Sequence record: NC_048172.1
Reading direction: 5' to 3' (one strand)
Length of the DNA: 43,264 nucleotides
From: Escherichia phage Minorna
Below, piece after piece: positions 7,222-41,496 of this stretch. A program made the position numbers and the translations under genes. The notes beneath the pieces are model-generated. The model was not told where the DNA came from. It was given only the letters and a program-made list of their open reading frames with translations, and ran no database searches. Position 1 is the first letter of the stretch; the number at the start of each line of letters is the position of its first letter.

Positions 7222-10200
7222 TTAATCGTCTCCGAAGTTATTGATGATAGCTCGCGTAGGCGCGAATTCCTGGATTAACGGGACCTGCTTAGTGAAGGTC
7301 TGGATATCCATATCCCCAGTAGCCAGGGCTTGCACCGCACCCAACAGCCCGGTGACGTAGCCCATAGACGCCAGAGAATGACGCGGAGAGTCCCCAGTGA
7401 AGATATCCTGCAGAAGCGAGATACCACCGATGGCACTCATACCCATAACCGATTCAGCGATAAGCTTTTGAGTGTCGACCTCTTTGCCGTCCATACCGTG
7501 CTTCGCCATAGTTGCTAGAAGCATCAATGGGAACTGGTATGCCATGATGTGTGCAACCCCAATCCACCCGGCATCATTCAACTCGCGGCGCAGAATCTTG
7601 TTGGTGGCAGCCAGGGCGAAGCTCTGATAGCCGACAATTACTTTGCCGATAGGGTTGAACTGGGCGAAGTGCGAGGTCTCACCGGTACGTACTTGCTGCA
7701 CCAAATAGTCCATCATACGCGTCCCTACCACCTCAACTTGCATTTGCAGGTCCGGCTGGAACATAGCACCAGGATTAGCTTTGTTAGCAGCAATAGCCCG
7801 GTCAGCGATTTCACGAGTAAGACCGAAACGTTCCAGACGCTTAAACGCCTCAGCGTCGCCCTTGAACATCTGCTGGAGCTCGTCCGCTACAATACCTGAG
7901 TTAAGGTTAACCTGCAGTCGATGTACCATACTCATACCGTTGACGTGACGTGCAGCCTGTCCAACGTTCTGGGTGACGTTAAACCAGGAAGCCTGACGGG
8001 TCAGGTCCAAGTTATCGTCTGCGTAGGTATTCAACCAGCGGAAGCGCATCTCCTTCTGGATACTACCACGTAGGATTGCATCCAGACGACTAGCCATATC
8101 CGGAGTGCGAATAGCTACGGAACCTTCTTTAAACCAAGGCTGCTCACGCATACTGCGAAGTACTCGGGACATACCAAACTCTTTCAGCGCTAGGGCGGTG
8201 TCAGTAAGCTGGTACAACCCAGAGTTCTTAAGCATGGTAGCGTTGGCCATGTTACCGGCTGCACGGAGCAGGTCCGGCATCTGCCCGGCGTCGGCTGGTG
8301 CCCCACCTAAGATAAAGTCGATGGTGTCATTAACGGTCTTCTCCCACTTACCTGAATCGGCCAGGGCGTGTTTGGACTCATTAATCATTGTCTCCAGCAC
8401 CTTGAGGTCAGATATCCCAGCATAAGCCATACCCACACGACCTGACATTCGGTTAGTATAACCATGCATAACCTTGGCTACGTCAGTATCCATCAGATCC
8501 TGCATACGCATAACCTGACCGTCTACGATGTACTCTTTGTCCATGTTGAAGCGGGTACGTTGACGGAGGTTCTTAGCAGGCGAGGTGGCGCCAGATTCTC
8601 GGACATTACCTGCCAAGAAACTCTGGATTGCATCCTCGTCTACACCAGCATTACGCATGGCCATAACTACTTCATCATTACCCATACCATTGATGAGTTG
8701 CTTCCACATAGGACCAGAGGCCGAGGAGCGTCCGTTGTAGATACCGTCAACCATCTCCTTAGCAACACGTTGAACGACCTCAGGCTCCATAGATGGATAC
8801 ACATCACGCAGTGCCTGACGGAACAGATCCCGATAATTATCCAAGGAGCGACCATTTGCAATACCTTGGCGCATCTTATCGTAGCTGTACTGGCGAGGGA
8901 AGTAATAGTCCGATTTAATCAGAGTACCGTCATCCACCAGCCCGGCAGCAGTCATGTGATCGTGCCACTTACTGGCCCAGCCGGAGTTGCGGTATGCCTC
9001 TACTAGCGGAACCAAGTCAGAGTCCGGCAGAGGTACCGGGCGTCCATTAACCTCCGCGCTGTATGCAGAGTCCAGGTAACGGCCCAAGCGGGCTTCTAAG
9101 TCAGCGCGAGCTGCTCGGAAGTTGCTACGGTGGAAGAAGCGGTCTATGAAACCTACACCTTTGGCCTTAAGGGCACCAAGTATAGCGTCCTCAACTACAC
9201 TGGCACTAGCGTCCATCTCCAACGTAAGGTTACGCTTGAAGTCCACCACAGACGGTTTACGACCGCCTACAGCAGTAGCGTCAGATACTAGTAAGCGTGC
9301 CAGGTCCTCGCTACCCTCTGCGATGTTATCATACAGGGAGAACATAGTGGCGAACTTGCGCTTAGCAGTGTCCATCATAGCTTGGGCCTTCAAGGCCTCA
9401 TGCTTAACCGATGTATCCGCCAAGTCCTGGAAGGCCTCACTCCGGAAGCTCTGAGCTTGGTCTGCGTAGTCCTTTGCGGTCCACTTGACAGCATCCTCGT
9501 ACGCGTCCAGAACATCCTCCAGAGCGGACCCCTTGGTGCGAATCCCCAGGGCATTCATGATGTACTCACCAATCTGGCGGAGCATACTCCTACCAGTAGG
9601 AGATTGAGTTCTAGAGAGATACTCCACCCACTCAGGGCTATCACCTAGTCCTGCTAACATCTCGTGCACATCGCTTGCGTAGTACTTAAGCTTATCACTG
9701 AGGGTTGAATCAGCTGCTATTGCAGCGCGCACCTCTTCCAGCTTACTAGCAATTTCAGGATTCTGCTTGATGGCTCTGGTGGTGGCAGCGTGAATCAGCT
9801 CGTGCACTGCTACTCGGCTAGTGTCCGCATCCATAGCACGCAGAGCATCCCCGGCAGTAGTCCAGGTACTTCCGTTCGCTTTCTTAGGGGCACGTAAAGA
9901 TATAAAACCCCTATCAGTTGTTGATGCTGGTGAAAATCCGTAGTGACTACGGTTAGAAGAACCGGCCACCAGTTTAAAGTCGATATCCTGTACTGCGTCA
10001 CCCAGGGTGTCCAGGATAGCCTTCTGACCTTTAGATAAGTGTTCAGAGGTCTTGAGGAAACGGACTACGTCCTGCGCTTTCATGTTAACAGCAGCAGTGT
10101 TATTCCGGCGAACTTGGATAGGTTCATCCAGTACCTTAGTGAGTATTGTGTCCCCTTCTCCTACTCCTGTAACATTAGCATCCCTTGCTGTACGAGTTGT

Positions 10201-10920
10201 GGGCGCGTCCGGGTCAAACATAGGCTCACGCCCAGTGCGTGCCTTTGCTGCTGCTTTAGCAGCCTTAGACATATCCCAGAGCTGGTCTAGTCCAGCTACC
10301 CCTGCTACCAGAGCAGTGACTGCCGCAGACTGTCCCAATTGATCTTGTGCATAGACAGCTGTACCTACATCCGCTGCACGGATAGCAGTACGCACTGCTA
10401 AGCCAGCACGACCAGCGATACCCGCCGCTGACATCGGAGCCAGTATAAATGGAGCATCACCAGCCAGTGCACCGGCGAACCCAGCTACCGTGTTATCAGA
10501 CATCTGACGGTCACGGTCACGCTGTTCTAGCATAGCCTGAATGCGATAATTATAATCATCCAAGGACACCGCCCCGTGCAAGTAATCAATCTCTTCCTGA
10601 TTAGGGGTGTAGAGCTTAGCTCTGGAGTCGGTGCTTAGTTGTTTCTTAGCATCAAACCCCTGCTCTGGGATGAATGTTGGGGAGGAGGCCTTTCTAATGG
10701 CTGCAGCTATAATGCTGTTACCAACCCCAGCAGCAAAGCTTTCCCCTGCTGACGTCGCTGGGGTTTTAGCCTGGGCCAGTATAGATGAACGCTGTAGTGC
10801 ATTCAGCCCATCATCTCCTGCGTCATTCCAATCTACGCTTGCAGGCGCAGGTTTAAGTGTTGCGCCCTTAGCAGAATCCTTTTCCTGTGGATTCGGTTCT
10901 TGGTTCAGAAACTGAGCCAT
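7222..10920 (-). CDS. internal virion protein C (T7 gp16-like)
   Basis: 1232-aa ORF, third and largest of three consecutive large ORFs after tail tubular B, matching the gp14-gp15-gp16 order. Confidence 0.75.
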   Translation of the reverse strand: MAQFLNQEPNPQEKDSAKGATLKPAPASVDWNDAGDDGLNALQRSSILAQAKTPATSAGESFAAGVGNSIIAAAIRKASSPTFIPEQGFDAKKQLSTDSRAKLYTPNQEEIDYLHGAVSLDDYNYRIQAMLEQRDRDRQMSDNTVAGFAGALAGDAPFILAPMSAAGIAGRAGLAVRTAIRAADVGTAVYAQDQLGQSAAVTALVAGVAGLDQLWDMSKAAKAAAKARTGREPMFDPDAPTTRTARDANVTGVGEGDTILTKVLDEPIQVRRNNTAAVNMKAQDVVRFLKTSEHLSKGQKAILDTLGDAVQDIDFKLVAGSSNRSHYGFSPASTTDRGFISLRAPKKANGSTWTTAGDALRAMDADTSRVAVHELIHAATTRAIKQNPEIASKLEEVRAAIAADSTLSDKLKYYASDVHEMLAGLGDSPEWVEYLSRTQSPTGRSMLRQIGEYIMNALGIRTKGSALEDVLDAYEDAVKWTAKDYADQAQSFRSEAFQDLADTSVKHEALKAQAMMDTAKRKFATMFSLYDNIAEGSEDLARLLVSDATAVGGRKPSVVDFKRNLTLEMDASASVVEDAILGALKAKGVGFIDRFFHRSNFRAARADLEARLGRYLDSAYSAEVNGRPVPLPDSDLVPLVEAYRNSGWASKWHDHMTAAGLVDDGTLIKSDYYFPRQYSYDKMRQGIANGRSLDNYRDLFRQALRDVYPSMEPEVVQRVAKEMVDGIYNGRSSASGPMWKQLINGMGNDEVVMAMRNAGVDEDAIQSFLAGNVRESGATSPAKNLRQRTRFNMDKEYIVDGQVMRMQDLMDTDVAKVMHGYTNRMSGRVGMAYAGISDLKVLETMINESKHALADSGKWEKTVNDTIDFILGGAPADAGQMPDLLRAAGNMANATMLKNSGLYQLTDTALALKEFGMSRVLRSMREQPWFKEGSVAIRTPDMASRLDAILRGSIQKEMRFRWLNTYADDNLDLTRQASWFNVTQNVGQAARHVNGMSMVHRLQVNLNSGIVADELQQMFKGDAEAFKRLERFGLTREIADRAIAANKANPGAMFQPDLQMQVEVVGTRMMDYLVQQVRTGETSHFAQFNPIGKVIVGYQSFALAATNKILRRELNDAGWIGVAHIMAYQFPLMLLATMAKHGMDGKEVDTQKLIAESVMGMSAIGGISLLQDIFTGDSPRHSLASMGYVTGLLGAVQALATGDMDIQTFTKQVPLIQEFAPTRAIINNFGDD

Positions 10921-10949
10921 ATTATCTCCTAAAAGAATTTTGATAAGGG

Positions 10950-10967
10950 GAGGCCCCGAAGGGCCTC
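10950..10967 (-). promoter_or_regulatory. intergenic stem-loop with cUUCGg tetraloop (candidate attenuator / RNA processing site)
   Basis: Minus-strand RNA gaggccc-UUCG-gggccuc: 7-bp GC-rich stem closed on a UUCG loop, starting 3 nt after the stop of the gp15-like gene, followed by a moderately U-rich stretch and the GGAGA RBS of the next gene. Confidence 0.4.
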
Positions 10968-10969
10968 TG

Positions 10970-13654
10970 TTAGTGTGTTACCTCAAACATCCAGTTACGC
11001 AGTCCTTGCTCCAGATATTTCTTACGTTTAGGCTGTGCCTGCTTGTAAGCTGGAGTATTGCGCAGTGCTTGCCAAGCCTTACCTTGGGCCTCCGATACAG
11101 GATACTGGTAAGCCCCTACAGGGGTCTTAGATGCCTTACGTACCTGTGCCACGGCCTCTGCTACAGGGCCAGAACTCCCGTTGCCACCATGATAGTTCAA
11201 GTCAACCATAACCTTCAGGGCATCCGCAGAGGCGCTTAGGCCCTGCCCGCGCAGTTGCTTGTTCACGTTCGGGATGTACTGCTGCTCCAGAGAGGATTTC
11301 AGAATGCTGATACCGTCGTCGATAGTAACCTTCTTAGGAACAGGCATACCAGAGTTGTTGTGCAGACCAAAACCTACACTGCCATTACCTTTACCTTCCC
11401 GGAACCCTTCAAACTGCATGATATTGGCGAGAATCTCACTAAATAAAGAAGGTTCTACACCAGCCCCATTACGACCATTGACCTGAACACTTACAGCTCT
11501 GCCGTTGTCATGATCGTAGAAAGTAGCTGGGCGGATACCAACTTGCTCGCTGCCAATCTTCATCTCACCAGCCAGCGCCTTGTTGTAAGCATCCTGCGCA
11601 GTAGATTGAACATCCTGTAGATTCACAGACATAGTCTGAAAGGTACCCTTCTTGTCGAATACGGTGACAGTCATATTCTGTGCTGAGTTGCCTGCTGTAG
11701 CAGCCTGCACTACTACGCGCTCAAGGTTGCTTGGGTCGATTAAGGCGTTGACCTGGTTCTGAATCTGCTGCTGCAGAGACGACTTGAACTGCTCCTGGTC
11801 TCCTCGATAATCCCCCATTAGGGATTGAATAGAAGTCCCAGCTGGCAGGTACACGTGCCGAGGAGCCCCAGAGATATCTAACTCCAGCTTACGGGCTTGG
11901 ATGTTACCTTTGAGCATCGTGTTGATATCATCAGGATCCTTACCAACTAACGCCTCTGGGTTGTGATTGTATACGTACCGATACTCTTCCTCCATAGCGG
12001 CGCGCGCTTCCTGGCGCTGTGCGTCAGCTGTGCCGAAGAAGCTGAACCAATTAGCAGTGTGACTCGGATCCACCATTTTGTCTGTGGGGTTGCTACTGAT
12101 GTTGCTGTAGCGCCCGCTAGCCTTGTTACGGGCCTGGCGACGCAGGTCGTCCAGAATGGTGTTGCTAGCGTTATTGGGGTTCTGTGCAATGGCCTTCTGA
12201 ACCACCCCCTGCCACTCAGATGGGACTTCAGACAGCAGAGCCATCTTACCTAAGTCGGTACTGGTACTATACGCTTGGGCCCACAGGTTGATGCTATTGA
12301 CATTCTCCTTGGACACCTGCCCATCCTCACCTAACTGGTCCAGTGTAGTGAGGGTGCGTGCCATATCCGAGGACATGCGCTTGTGTGCTTCATTGATGGC
12401 CCACGCATCTTTACTATTGCTACCATAAGCCAGTAGCTGCAAGTTCCCCTCTGGAGTGTCTGGGAAGTTTTTGAGTACCTGTGACCGGGCCTTATCCAAA
12501 TCCCCTTTAAACATACCAGCTAAGGTGGATGTAGGAAGGTTTCCTGTGATGGCACTACGTAAAGCCTGTGTATCGGCAGTCTTCTCCCTGATAGTCTGAG
12601 CCTTGTTCCAGAACTCCATACTGGTGCCGGGGCTTAGTACATCCGTAGCAGATAGCTCAATCACGCGGTTGCGGATACGCTGCATCGTCTGCTCCTGCTC
12701 TTCTGGGGACTGCCCCTCCAGAGACTGAATTGCATCTGAGATTTCAAAGCGAGCCCGAGTCTCAATCTGAGCCCCAGCACGCTTAAATTCCTGATACAAG
12801 GCAGCATTAACGTCTACAGAGTTAACACCAAGCTCTTTAGTTGCCATTTCCTGCAACTGGTTGATGATTAGAGGGTCCTGAGTCTGCTGCGCTACACTGA
12901 CCAGATACTGCTTGGCCCGGTCCAATTTCTTGGACTTATCCAGGTGCTCAGCTGCCAGGATACTATCCAATCCTGTCTTAATTGACATCTGTGCAGCAGC
13001 ACCCTGCCCAGCATCCAGGCGCTGATAGAACTCATCAACGGAGGAGCTGAGCCCATGGTCCAGCGCACGGTCTGCTTGTACTACCGCAAACTCTGCGCGA
13101 CCCTTCTGGAAGGCCGTATAGTTCGCTAAGCTGGTTGCACGGAGCTGCTGCAGTATCGCTGTAGCGGACTGTTTGGACATATCCGGAAGATACATACCGA
13201 GCTTGTCAGACATAGCTTGAACATGCTCTTGCTCCTGCTGGTGGAATTCCTCATCAGTCAGTCCAGCCTCAGCTGCCTTCTTAGCGCGAGCAATACTATC
13301 CGTACGCCACTTAGCTAGAGAATCGTAGGCCGCAGCAGATACATAACCATCCTGGTAGGCTTCTCGTACAAATAGATTCTGCTTCTGTACTGCCTCATCT
13401 TTAGAGGCCATTGCATCTACTGCACCCTGGGCATCCATAGCACCTCGCACAGTGGCCGCTGCTGCATTTTCTTTTACTGCTGCATCAAACCCTATACCAA
13501 AGTCCTGGACGAAGCCAGAAAGTGCTGCAAGGCGGTTTGCTTTGGATGGGTCTACTGCTACATCCCCGACGGTAGAGGGTAAGTTAACCTCGTTGGCCTG
13601 CAATTGCACGCCGCCGATACTTAGACCCTGTCGGTTGGGTTGAATTACAGGCAT
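10970..13654 (-). CDS. internal virion protein B (T7 gp15-like)
   Basis: 894-aa ORF between the gp14-like and gp16-like genes; helical, Ala/Gln-rich. Confidence 0.7.
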   Translation of the reverse strand: MPVIQPNRQGLSIGGVQLQANEVNLPSTVGDVAVDPSKANRLAALSGFVQDFGIGFDAAVKENAAAATVRGAMDAQGAVDAMASKDEAVQKQNLFVREAYQDGYVSAAAYDSLAKWRTDSIARAKKAAEAGLTDEEFHQQEQEHVQAMSDKLGMYLPDMSKQSATAILQQLRATSLANYTAFQKGRAEFAVVQADRALDHGLSSSVDEFYQRLDAGQGAAAQMSIKTGLDSILAAEHLDKSKKLDRAKQYLVSVAQQTQDPLIINQLQEMATKELGVNSVDVNAALYQEFKRAGAQIETRARFEISDAIQSLEGQSPEEQEQTMQRIRNRVIELSATDVLSPGTSMEFWNKAQTIREKTADTQALRSAITGNLPTSTLAGMFKGDLDKARSQVLKNFPDTPEGNLQLLAYGSNSKDAWAINEAHKRMSSDMARTLTTLDQLGEDGQVSKENVNSINLWAQAYSTSTDLGKMALLSEVPSEWQGVVQKAIAQNPNNASNTILDDLRRQARNKASGRYSNISSNPTDKMVDPSHTANWFSFFGTADAQRQEARAAMEEEYRYVYNHNPEALVGKDPDDINTMLKGNIQARKLELDISGAPRHVYLPAGTSIQSLMGDYRGDQEQFKSSLQQQIQNQVNALIDPSNLERVVVQAATAGNSAQNMTVTVFDKKGTFQTMSVNLQDVQSTAQDAYNKALAGEMKIGSEQVGIRPATFYDHDNGRAVSVQVNGRNGAGVEPSLFSEILANIMQFEGFREGKGNGSVGFGLHNNSGMPVPKKVTIDDGISILKSSLEQQYIPNVNKQLRGQGLSASADALKVMVDLNYHGGNGSSGPVAEAVAQVRKASKTPVGAYQYPVSEAQGKAWQALRNTPAYKQAQPKRKKYLEQGLRNWMFEVTH

Positions 13655-16640: not shown

Positions 16641-17201
16641 TTAAATCATAAAGCGTGCACGACGAATACGACGTGCGAATCTGGTCTTGCTGGTACTGTA
16701 CTTCTGGTTACGCAGATGCTCTCGCAACACCAAGGACTTGTACCGCTCTGCCTCTGCAGCGTAGTTGGCGTAGTTACCGTCACTTCCGAGGTCATTCAGG
16801 TACACCTGCGCAGCAGTGTAGTTTGCAATCCACATGGCGGCATGCTCCGGAAGATCCTCAAAGTTAAGGTCCAGTACCACCTTAATCTTAACAGGGGAAT
16901 CGAAGTACTCGTCCTGCTCGACCAGGTTGTAAAGGTTTCCATCACGTACACCATACTTATTGTCGGAGCACGCATCATACACTGCTAGCTGGTTCCACGG
17001 AATTTTAATAAAACCATCAGTTGTAGGGGTAACCTCCCGCTCAACCACATTGAACCAGTAACCGGTACTGAGCAATCCTCGGCGATTACGCGCGAGCGCA
17101 GAACGTGCTAATCCCGCACTAAGGTTTGAAGTATTGATATCCATAACGCGAGATTCCCCTAGGGCTTCCAGCGTCAAATTAATGGCGTCTAACTCTCTCA
17201 T
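16641..17201 (-). CDS. tail tubular protein A (T7 gp11-like)
   Basis: Position after capsid and terminator; start set to ATG 17201 (MRELDAINLT..); the track ORF to 17321 would run through the terminator hairpin. Confidence 0.7.
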   Translation of the reverse strand: MRELDAINLTLEALGESRVMDINTSNLSAGLARSALARNRRGLLSTGYWFNVVEREVTPTTDGFIKIPWNQLAVYDACSDNKYGVRDGNLYNLVEQDEYFDSPVKIKVVLDLNFEDLPEHAAMWIANYTAAQVYLNDLGSDGNYANYAAEAERYKSLVLREHLRNQKYSTSKTRFARRIRRARFMI

Positions 17202-17246
17202 ATTTGTTCCTCTATTAAAGACCCCTAGGACCCTTAAGACAGGGAC

Positions 17247-17284
17247 AAAAAAAAAAGCCCCCGGCACCCGAAGGCACCAGGGGC
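17247..17284 (-). terminator. rho-independent terminator downstream of the capsid operon (T-phi-like)
   Basis: Minus-strand RNA gccccuggugcc-UUCG-ggugccgggggc followed by U10 (plus strand shows A10 at 17247-17256 then the hairpin): 12-bp stem including three G-U pairs, UUCG tetraloop, long U-tract. Confidence 0.85.
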
Positions 17285-17289
17285 GCATA

Positions 17290-17487
17290 TTACTCTTTAG
17301 TTTCTGTACCCGTCGCTGCATCAGCTACTGCATCAACAGCTTTGCGGGTACGCTTAGTAGCTTTACGGCCAGATTCTACCGAACCTACTTGAATGTGCTT
17401 CGCTACATCAGAGGCGGCCTTTACCGCCTCACGTTGAGCAGCGTTGGCCTGGAGAGTCTCCAGACCGAACACGGCGATTACTGCCAT
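17290..17487 (-). CDS. hypothetical small protein (65 aa) between capsid gene and terminator
   Basis: Own ATG with strong SD (tgattGGAGGttaaATG); Ala/Lys-rich; a TAA stop sits directly upstream of the ATG in this frame, so it is not a capsid frameshift extension. Confidence 0.5.
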   Translation of the reverse strand: MAVIAVFGLETLQANAAQREAVKAASDVAKHIQVGSVESGRKATKRTRKAVDAVADAATGTETKE

Positions 17488-40855: not shown

Positions 40856-41431
40856 TCATGCCGCTACCTTCAAAGTTGCATCCAGCACAGCGCGTACATC
40901 CACGCCCTGACTGATAAGCATAGATACCAAATCAGAGTCGCTCACCCCAGTTTCTTTAGCCTTCTTGATAGCGTTTTTAACGCGCCCCAGAGCTTGCAGA
41001 CGCACTGCATCGGCATCAAGGGCATCATTCTTCACCTGCTCTGCTTCGGCGTTGTACAGGGCCATACAAGCGCTATAGAAGCTGGCCACAATCACTTCAC
41101 GGCCTTGCTTGTCAGCTTGTTTATAGTCCAAACGCATAGTGTCCAGTTCAATGCCCAGCTTTTCAGCCGACGCATAGCACTTTTTAGCGTGGAATTCGTA
41201 CTTGCCCGATTCCTTGTTGAACTTGATAGGCAGCAGTGTACGCAGCACCATATCGAAATCGGCGGCATCACTGCGCTGCATATCCGTCGCCCAAGAAACG
41301 TTGCTACTAATCAGGCCGTGGAACAGAGCGCTGATAGTAATATTGCGTTTTGCTTCCACTACATCGCCCAGCGCCTTGCGAATGCTGCCAGCAGCGGTTA
41401 ATTTGAATACTCTACCAGTTGAATGAGTCAT
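40856..41431 (-). CDS. hypothetical early protein (191 aa)
   Basis: Second gene of the early region; GAGGT 5 nt upstream of the ATG; no recognisable motif. Confidence 0.55.
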   Translation of the reverse strand: MTHSTGRVFKLTAAGSIRKALGDVVEAKRNITISALFHGLISSNVSWATDMQRSDAADFDMVLRTLLPIKFNKESGKYEFHAKKCYASAEKLGIELDTMRLDYKQADKQGREVIVASFYSACMALYNAEAEQVKNDALDADAVRLQALGRVKNAIKKAKETGVSDSDLVSMLISQGVDVRAVLDATLKVAA

Positions 41432-41466
41432 GATGCACCTCTTTGATTGGTTGTTTAGGTAATTAC

Positions 41467-41496
41467 TTCACATAGCACCCCATAGGATGCTATAGG
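41467..41496 (-). promoter_or_regulatory. conserved dyad element, copy 2 (atagca-N10-tgctat)
   Basis: Plus strand ttcacatagcaccccataggatgctatagg; relative to copy 1 the stem changes G/C to A/T at paired positions; 36 nt upstream of the ATG at 41431. Confidence 0.5.

Follow-up and report, generated by a model that had tools for sequence, protein, structure and literature searches.

Intercistronic hairpins that stabilize messenger RNA (mRNA) are known to support differential expression within operons, as in the malE-malF repetitive extragenic palindromic (REP) element, the Rhodobacter puf operon and the pap operon, and in RNA phages long-distance interactions control translation starts, as in the Min Jou interaction and the maturation-gene leader of MS2. 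From a single long transcript, podophages have to make three ejection proteins at fixed ratios, and to our knowledge the means by which they do so is known only for T7. In the virion of the phiKMV-like phage Ar-KM, the gp16-like, gp15-like and gp14-like proteins are present at 4:8:8 (bioRxiv 10.64898/2026.05.18.726046). Here, we analyzed the junction between the gp15-like and gp16-like internal virion protein genes of Escherichia phage Minorna (NC_048172.1), which carries a short GC-rich hairpin; the window, i.e., the whole stretch of 43,264 nucleotides, is the complete genome of a KP34-like (Drulisvirus) podophage with every gene on the minus strand. Comparison among relatives indicated that the hairpin is accompanied by a conserved, covarying long-range helix between the intergenic region and the beginning of the gp16-like coding sequence (CDS), and that the whole element is probably a structured cis-regulatory mRNA leader.

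The hairpin, GAGGCCC-UUCG-GGGCCUC, is positioned at 10950..10967 (minus strand, as for all features of the window given below) and consists of 7 perfect base pairs (bp), six G:C and one A:U, closed on a UUCG loop, with a predicted free energy of -14.1 kcal/mol and a pair probability of ~1.0. It begins 2 nt past the TAA stop codon of the gp15-like gene (10970..10972) and directly adjoins the 5' strand of the long-range helix (H5', CCCUUAUCAAAAUUCUUUU, with an invariant UUAUCA core; 10931..10949), which is followed without a gap by the Shine-Dalgarno (SD) sequence AGGAG (10926..10930) and then by the AUG of the gp16-like gene (10918..10920), so that the minus-strand order reads CAC-TAA-CA-GAGGCCC-UUCG-GGGCCUC-CCCUUAUCAAAAUUCUUUU-AGGAG-AUAAU-AUG. 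A preliminary description of this locus had placed a cUUCGg hairpin with a 7-bp stem between the two genes at 10921-10969 and an SD behind it; both were confirmed, the interval being exactly the 49-nt intergenic spacer and the SD lying at 10930-10926, and the minus-strand orientation of the genes, which had not been stated, can be added. The gaps between the other late genes of the window range from -56 to +24 nt, and the structured 49-nt gap is an outlier among them.

Taken alone, the hairpin is not statistically unusual, as the window contains 31 perfect stems of at least 7 bp per strand and the fold z-scores of the junction in the window were -1.2 to -1.6; besides this hairpin, one window stem has six G:C pairs out of seven. 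Support beyond chance comes instead from the comparison among lineages. The preliminary description had suggested looking for the hairpin in related phages, and a hairpin was indeed found at the same place in at least 10 lineages. In addition to Drulisvirus itself, junction hairpins are kept in Koutsourovirus (AGGGGC-UUCG/CUCG-GCCCCU), the lineage L063 (GGGGCC-GUGU-GGCCCC), Cronobacter phage Peggy (GGGCC-CUAGC-GGCCC), P64441 and ECO121 (7-bp stems with 7-8-nt loops), the Vibrio phages of Maculvirus (GGGGC-AUUU-GCCCC), Pantoea phage LIMElight of Limelightvirus (GGGCGG-UUCG-CCGCCC), Erwinia phage Micant (GGGCGA-UACG-UCGCCC) and the Proteus and Providencia phages (GAGGGUAG-UUCUGUG-CUACCCUC, with a longer stem in Providencia PSTRCR_114). 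The hairpin always lies between the preceding open reading frame (ORF) and H5', its position being fixed and its sequence free. In a set of 67 relatives from IMG/VR, where relatives from Vibrio, Proteus and Erwinia are sparse, the close group has an invariant stem except for one genome in which the outermost pair is broken, and the loop is UUCG, UCCG or UCCA. The UUCG loop is therefore dispensable, considering also the CUCG, GUGU, AUUU, UACG and longer loops of the more distant phages, and stable UNCG-type loops are frequent among the junction hairpins.

The pattern of change within the stem points to selection on pairing. In an ungapped alignment of six tetraloop lineages, for which the segments were centered on the fold by the author, two-sided changes occurred in five of the seven stem pairs, and 91% of the cells were paired, compared with 69% in shuffles (0/500 reached the observed value) and 37-65% in slid controls. 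When the full intergenic regions of ten lineages were folded, the z-score was negative in all of them (-0.6 to -4.1), and the junction hairpin dominated every centroid fold, with the gp16-like SD and AUG unpaired in all ten and the UUAUCA tract unpaired in nine. As MAFFT plus RNAalifold on the raw junctions misregistered some hairpins, a covariance model and equal-length anchored alignments were used; the junction covariance model gave one window match above noise (82.5 bits; two more matches scored ~11 bits, E>5) and also recovered the relatives. No Rfam family matched the window at gathering thresholds, and a permissive scan returned only a 13-bit chance match to the stem. Thus, sequence comparison supports a conserved functional element at the gp15-like/gp16-like boundary.

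The second component of the architecture is a long-range helix in which the untranslated region (UTR) at 10949-10931 pairs with codons 13-19 of the gp16-like ORF at 10883-10865 (H3', 10865..10883, AAAAGGAUUCUGCUAAGGG; codons for E-K-D-S-A-K-G), enclosing a loop of ~50 nt with the SD, the AUG and the first 12 codons. Junctions anchored on the ATG have in common an invariant UUAUCA-N5-(C)UUU-SD tract 25-28 nt upstream of the ATG, which occurs as a UUACUA variant 29 nt upstream in the Proteus and Providencia phages; the register of the tract follows the ATG, not the hairpin, and no second copy of TTATCA-N5-CTTT was found in the window. The pairing of this tract with codons 13-19 was first proposed by RNAalifold on 11 diverse junctions, and in RNAduplex predictions the tract had its best partner within the CDS between +36 and +70 for 11 of 12 lineages. 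In a single fixed register, with the CDS anchor chosen by maximizing pairs and always falling on homologous codons, 15-17 of the 19 positions pair in all 82 loci (17 distinct strand pairs). An anchored ungapped alignment revealed that 10 of the 19 pairs change on both sides (0/500 shuffles), that 86.1% of the cells are paired (73.3% in shuffles and 36-51% in slid controls), and that the covariation score is 0.360 vs 0.152. For example, the core UUAUCA:UGCUAA is replaced by UUACUA:UAGUAA or GAGUAA in the Proteus and Providencia phages, and the LIMElight core UUAUCA:UGAUAA is a perfect match. Since the pairs include G:U wobbles, the structure belongs to the mRNA strand. As the lineages are related, the cell counts for hairpin and helix exceed the number of independent events, which we estimate at about a dozen compensatory events at least. 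The junction has, in short, covariation-supported long-range pairing that flanks the ribosome-binding site (RBS), as do long-distance-interaction control elements.

Folding was also assessed with thermodynamic models, which ignore ribosomes and proteins. Unconstrained folding of ~275 nt of native sequence placed the helix in the minimum free energy (MFE) structure of 10 of 11 lineages, and its mean pair probability was 0.33 in the window, 0.48-0.88 in nine other lineages and 0.09 in L063, which takes an alternative register. The 3' end of H5' lies 0-2 nt before the SD; in the MFE structure of the window, the GGA of the SD pairs with the UCC of codons 10-11, and such pairing, with UCC or UCCUC of these codons, recurs in several lineages. 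All 11 lineages favor the closed state, by 1.6-11.8 kcal/mol, and in 8 of the 11 the region from SD to AUG is costlier to open in this state (median +1.8 kcal/mol; +1.3 kcal/mol in the window).

The helix also accounts for an island of conservation that extends from the gp15-like stop to approximately +125 nt (10844-10975 in the window), covering the spacer and the first ~25 gp16-like codons with their synonymous sites. Almost no variation was observed in this sharply bounded, near-invariant island among 55-56 distinct close relatives, compared with roughly half of the flanking columns that vary. A 116-nt element from it is at least 95% identical in 247 of 261 matching GenBank records, and in 213 of these 247 the identity drops to 60-80% over the surrounding 1.1 kb; the nearest GenBank relative in the searched region is Escherichia phage AV102, with 98.7% identity across 1.1 kb. 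The 3' edge of the island coincides with a tentative second local hairpin, HP2 (GGCGCA-11 nt-UGCGCC; 10844..10866), with a predicted free energy of -8.5 and a probability of ~0.78.

Several other readings of the conserved spacer were considered and rejected. TTATCA as a -35 box was dismissed by eye, as no downstream -10 is conserved across genera and the start would fall inside the ORF, and a DnaA box or integration host factor (IHF) site fits neither in register nor in consensus on inspection, the G:U wobbles pointing to RNA. An anti-SD CCUCC in the 3' arm of the hairpin, which could have masked the SD, is not conserved in L063 or the Koutsourovirus group, and an RNase E motif (RN|WUU) is present in the window and absent by eye from the Koutsourovirus and Vibrio versions. 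A generic RBS context does not apply either, since CTTT+SD and TTATCA-N5-CTTT occur at no other gene of the window.

The preliminary description had interpreted the hairpin as a possible partial terminator or attenuator and had noted a moderately U-rich tract behind the stem. Class I terminators of phage and bacterial RNA polymerases (RNAPs) consist of a hairpin followed by U-rich sequence, and class II signals consist of HATCTGTT followed by T-rich sequence (PMC11347151; see also PMC9624206). The junction has the stable GC-rich stem of class I, and its adjoining 3' sequence is not U-rich: the tail CCCUUAUCAAAAUUC has three U in the first 8 nt, and the stem's 3' flank CCCUUAUC has 3/8 U, compared with 8/8 in the published Kp34likevirus post-capsid terminator (PMC4411677), which is found in the window at 17257..17284 with a 12-bp stem, a UUCG loop and a U10 tail. 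The tail scores were 0.48 and 6.04, respectively, and the d'Aubenton-Carafa discriminant was -32.6 for the window hairpin, -51 to -7 across the 11 lineages, all negative, and +76.9 for the post-capsid terminator. No lineage has a U-run after the stem, and a simple terminator scan of the window did not list the junction hairpin. The moderately U-rich tract is thus no terminator tail and instead forms the 5' strand of the conserved helix with codons 13-19. A class II-like signal was rejected as well: HATCTGTT is absent from the spacer, where UUAUCAAAAUUCUUUU has only TATC in common with it, and the conservation of this TATC-containing motif is explained by its predicted pairing with the GCU-AAG codons. 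Judged by its sequence, then, the hairpin is not a canonical terminator.

In a weaker form of termination, the phage single-subunit RNAP would pause or terminate leakily at the hairpin, and some transcripts would be dropped before the gp16-like gene. The promoters of KP34 RNAP, strong and weak, have been defined experimentally (PMC6834552). A promoter in the spacer was excluded, as searches for T(A/G)ATGTTACAGGAGTA or the weak form with at most 3 mismatches found no match there; elsewhere in the window, the same threshold gave 10177-10162, 21754-21739, 42737-42722 and three weak sites, of which 21754-21739 (just past the RNAP gene) and 10177-10162 are exact strong promoters and 42737-42722 has one mismatch. 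From these promoter positions and that of the post-capsid terminator, the hairpin occupies a central position within the late polycistronic transcript. The exact strong promoter TAATGTTACAGGAGTA (10162..10177) is located within the gp16-like ORF, 745 nt past its start and 795 nt past the gp15-like stop, and transcripts from it would carry no full-length gp16-like gene and would feed the tail-fiber, terminase and lysis genes. Under leaky termination, this internal promoter would restore the distal late genes and only full-length gp16-like mRNA would fall, in keeping with the 4:8 virion ratio. The GC-rich hairpin right after the stop, with the loop of the phage's own terminator, would also suit this proposal, and KP34 RNAP halts at a class I-type hairpin in vitro (PMC6834552); in addition, the record of Proteus phage PM16 carries a 'putative rho-independent terminator' annotation at this junction, and SP6 has a strong hairpin there. 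Nevertheless, the missing U-rich tail and the uniformly negative discriminant speak against it, as does the fact that no U-run was gained over deep divergence in phages which build canonical terminators elsewhere; the tail is accounted for by pairing with the CDS, HATCTGTT is lacking, and in P64441 and ECO121 a consensus sigma-70-like promoter precedes the hairpin by ~25 nt and would serve no purpose if termination were efficient. We therefore regard leaky termination as unlikely. With respect to the suggestion that the hairpin sets gp15:gp16 stoichiometry, a step-down at this junction remains biologically sensible because of the 4:8:8 packaging in Ar-KM, and it is termination as the means that finds no support.

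Our favored reading, held tentatively and with a little less than even confidence, is that the hairpin serves as a stable RNA barrier ahead of a structured leader, by which gp16-like output is tuned at the mRNA level. The hairpin would separate the gp15-like cistron from the structured leader of the gp16-like gene, with its stem sequence free to vary; it would insulate the leader by absorbing the footprint of ribosomes that terminate 2 nt upstream, keep upstream sequence from mispairing with the A/U-rich strand, and block 3'-to-5' decay of the gp12-gp15 message. The long-range helix would clamp the initiation region, and gp16-like output would depend on the gene's own initiation site instead of on coupling to gp15-like translation. 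The outcome would be less gp16-like than gp15-like protein, fitting the need of the virion. We infer every functional consequence, as well as the direction, 5'-to-3' or 3'-to-5', of the processes that the barrier would face. The role as an RNA processing or stability element, which the preliminary description had offered as an alternative, remains viable: a stem-loop stands 3' of the gene for the more abundant product (8:4 in Ar-KM), with free sequence and conserved position, as in intercistronic mRNA-stabilizing hairpins.

A number of observations weigh against the barrier-and-leader reading. HP2 and a local AAUCC..GGAUU hairpin compete with the helix in the window, where its ensemble probability is for this reason only 0.2-0.33; in 3 of 11 lineages the helix alters SD accessibility little or not at all; and the gp16-like ribosome-binding region is mid-ranked in opening energy among the 31 genes of the window, for which reason simple RBS occlusion was also rejected. 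The covariation alignments were anchored by hand, and the lineages are not independent. The distance between hairpin and helix is 13-21 nt in P64441/ECO121 and ~30-65 nt in the Proteus and Providencia phages, and the hairpin sometimes stands apart from the stop codon; since it does not always adjoin the helix or the stop, the capping and footprint-buffer roles cannot hold everywhere. Two Klebsiella phages, Kpn BHU1 (OL979478) and Kpn BHU2 (OL979479), are without the 49-nt spacer altogether. Finally, data on transcripts, ribosomes or nucleases were not found for this clade in our literature searches.

The BHU1 junction (L085 2245-2250) reads TAAATG, with the stop abutting the start, and BHU2 matches the element only from the ATG on. 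Both genomes originate from a single laboratory and fall below their relatives in length, and the BHU1 record is labeled 'partial genome'; the loss of the spacer may be an assembly artifact or a natural coupling variant, in which case the element would be dispensable. Further relatives also lack the element, namely LUZ19 (3-nt gap), J8-65 (overlapping genes), LKA1 (10 nt) and AS11 (9 nt), and their spacing, an overlap or 3-10 nt, is by sequence a coupling geometry, which would agree with a dosage role of the element where it is present. The T7 15/16 junction has a 26-nt gap without a hairpin. In the SP6 gp36/gp37 gap (L089 6554-6619, 66 nt), a strong irregular hairpin of -20.4 kcal/mol is found, in which an internal loop separates an inner stem of 12 bp from an outer stem of 6 bp and no U-run follows. 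Its shape is like that of a T7-type RNase III site, and UTR-CDS pairing at this junction did not rise above chance.

This likeness leads to host RNase III, which processes T7, T3 and lambda mRNAs (PMC5371410). The long-range helix might be such a processing site, as in the late mRNAs of T7 and T3, and it may stack on the hairpin. A cut there would detach the initiation region of the gp16-like gene from the polycistronic RNA and leave the gp12-gp15 message with the hairpin as a protective 3' terminus, and downstream genes could still be translated. An imperfect duplex over 19-23 nt, approximately two helical turns with conserved 1x1 mismatches, is compatible with this possibility, and so is the stable hairpin upstream of the helix in every lineage at any spacing, which fits a block to 3' exonucleases; the SP6 hairpin at the same junction may be counted here as well. 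On the other hand, the core of 19 positions, with 15-17 pairs, falls short of the stated minimum double-stranded region of 22 nt (PMC5371410), a length reached only by the RNAduplex extensions of 21-23 nt including mismatches. A simple local hairpin would suffice for processing, the enclosure of the RBS is left unexplained, and double-strand cleavage would fall inside the ORF. RNase III processing is a serious rival, to which we assign a rather low probability.

The competition between helix and local hairpins allows a further possibility, that the hairpin, the helix and the competing hairpins (AAUCC..GGAUU and HP2) form a translational switch which limits ribosome loading per gp16-like mRNA. 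HP2 overlaps the end of H3' and thus competes with the long-range helix; the SD (AGGAG) and H3' (AAGGAUU) are both SD-like, and H5' (AAUUCUU) and codons 10-11 (AAUCC) are both anti-SD-like, so that in the folding model the segments within 10865-10901 look like a four-part alternative-pairing set. The alternatives in the window, H5':H3' with SD:UCC (closed) and AAUCC:GGAUU with HP2 (open), are nearly isoenergetic, which could indicate a switch. By analogy with the MS2 maturation gene, it could operate kinetically, through a window on the nascent RNA before the clamp closes; alternatively, it could act as an operator through which unassembled ejection protein represses its own synthesis. We consider the switch doubtful. 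If it exists, it would represent an undescribed class of cis-regulatory RNA that sets ejectosome stoichiometry across at least seven podophage genera.

The spacer is in addition a hot-spot for insertions. In the contig L061 (2260-2629), a gene for an HNH homing endonuclease (HSCDNPACINPRHL motif) lies just past the gp15-like stop, between CGGAGG and TGGTCC, and in Providencia phage PS3 (L083 2304-2501) a 65-aa ORF is inserted after this stop; in both, the hairpin and leader are intact and downstream of the insert, and this retention of the hairpin with the leader favors an RNA-level role for it. The P64441/ECO121 junctions (L070 1960-2092; L084 2236-2376; L064, L065) carry an inserted cassette upstream of the junction hairpin, with a consensus sigma-70-like promoter, TTGACG-17 nt-TATAAT, within an inverted repeat AAGGGTTT...AAACCCTT, and with an inner ATCATG/CATGAT hairpin. 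Such insertions could be taken to mean that the hairpin has no regulatory role of its own and that the island is kept for non-RNA reasons, as a recombination linker between mosaic modules or a homing-endonuclease target, with the hairpin merely a passenger, and the sharp bounds of the island and the spacer-free BHU1 and BHU2 would agree with this. We nonetheless judge this explanation very improbable, as the two-sided compensatory changes in hairpin and helix across genera indicate selection on RNA pairing rather than on sequence, the G:U wobbles are strand-specific, and hairpins of unrelated sequence recur at the same position.

With regard to the remaining features of the window, the gp15-like internal virion protein B is encoded by the ORF 13654-10970 (894 aa; phrog_2083, PHROG annotation 'internal virion lysozyme motif', E=0) and the gp16-like internal virion protein C by the ORF 10920-7222 (1232 aa; phrog_342, 'internal virion protein with endolysin domain', E=1e-238). 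The ORF 16641-17321 spans the post-capsid terminator, and the tail tubular protein A gene must therefore have its true start downstream of the terminator. At approximately 41440-41480, upstream of the ORF starting at 41431, AGCATCCTATGGGGTGCTATGTGAAGTAATTACC matches the hairpin motif that Eriksson et al. reported for Kp34likevirus as a 'putative phage promoter' or nick site (PMC4411677); this motif is not among the promoters later mapped for KP34 RNAP. In PM16 (NC_027342, L073), the annotated gp37 start ATGTATACAC... (2049) is probably an error; 66 nt further downstream (~2115) lies ATGGCTAAGTTTTTAAAT, the conserved start, which is accompanied by its SD and the UUACUA leader tract.

In our literature searches, the junction was described only through automated terminator predictions. 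The hairpin alone is an ordinary intercistronic stem-loop, and it is the combination of a barrier hairpin with a covarying UTR-CDS clamp at the gp16-like start, spanning at least seven genera, that appears to be undescribed. The junction comprises the most strongly conserved non-coding nucleotides seen in this region among ~250 Klebsiella and Escherichia phages of therapeutic type, and the covarying RNA architecture is common to Vibrio, Pantoea, Erwinia, Proteus and Providencia phages. It offers a mutable handle on gp16-like dosage and a candidate for a new RNA family. For phage engineering, some caution may be advised, as the spacer is a natural insertion site, and recoding the first 20 gp16-like codons or trimming the spacer would break the predicted structure.

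The element can be compared with several known systems. Like T7-type class I terminators (T7 Tphi and the Kp34likevirus post-capsid terminator), the junction has a GC-rich stem-loop just past a structural gene, and it has in common with the post-capsid terminator the UUCG loop and the setting in a late polycistronic transcript of a single-subunit RNAP; however, its stem has 7 bp rather than 12, the U tail is found only in the terminator, and the 3' flank of the junction hairpin is base-paired to the downstream ORF. The PM16 junction resembles it in genomic position, strong stem, lack of a U-run and presence of the long-range helix, and differs in the UUACUA core and in a hairpin ~65 nt upstream of the helix, whereas the SP6 gp36/gp37 hairpin resembles it in position, strong stem and lack of a U-run and has no comparable UTR-CDS duplex. 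With the R-sites of T7 and T3, the element has in common an intercistronic position in a T7-like late message and an imperfect duplex of approximately two turns, and after processing the upstream mRNA would likewise terminate in a hairpin; here, however, the duplex is long-range, encloses the RBS in its ~50-nt loop, involves coding sequence and has a 19-bp core, and T7 has no such element at its own 15/16 junction. As in the malE-malF REP, puf and pap systems, a stem-loop stands directly 3' of the cistron that is needed in greater amount, although here it is a single copy, not repeated, and coupled to a conserved downstream leader structure. Similarly, the junction resembles the MS2 interactions in that conserved long-range pairing flanks the RBS and alternative local hairpins provide a possible kinetic window, whereas its partner strand lies in the regulated gene's own ORF, the SD is incompletely sequestered, the message is that of a DNA phage, and the translational effect is a predicted and modest one.

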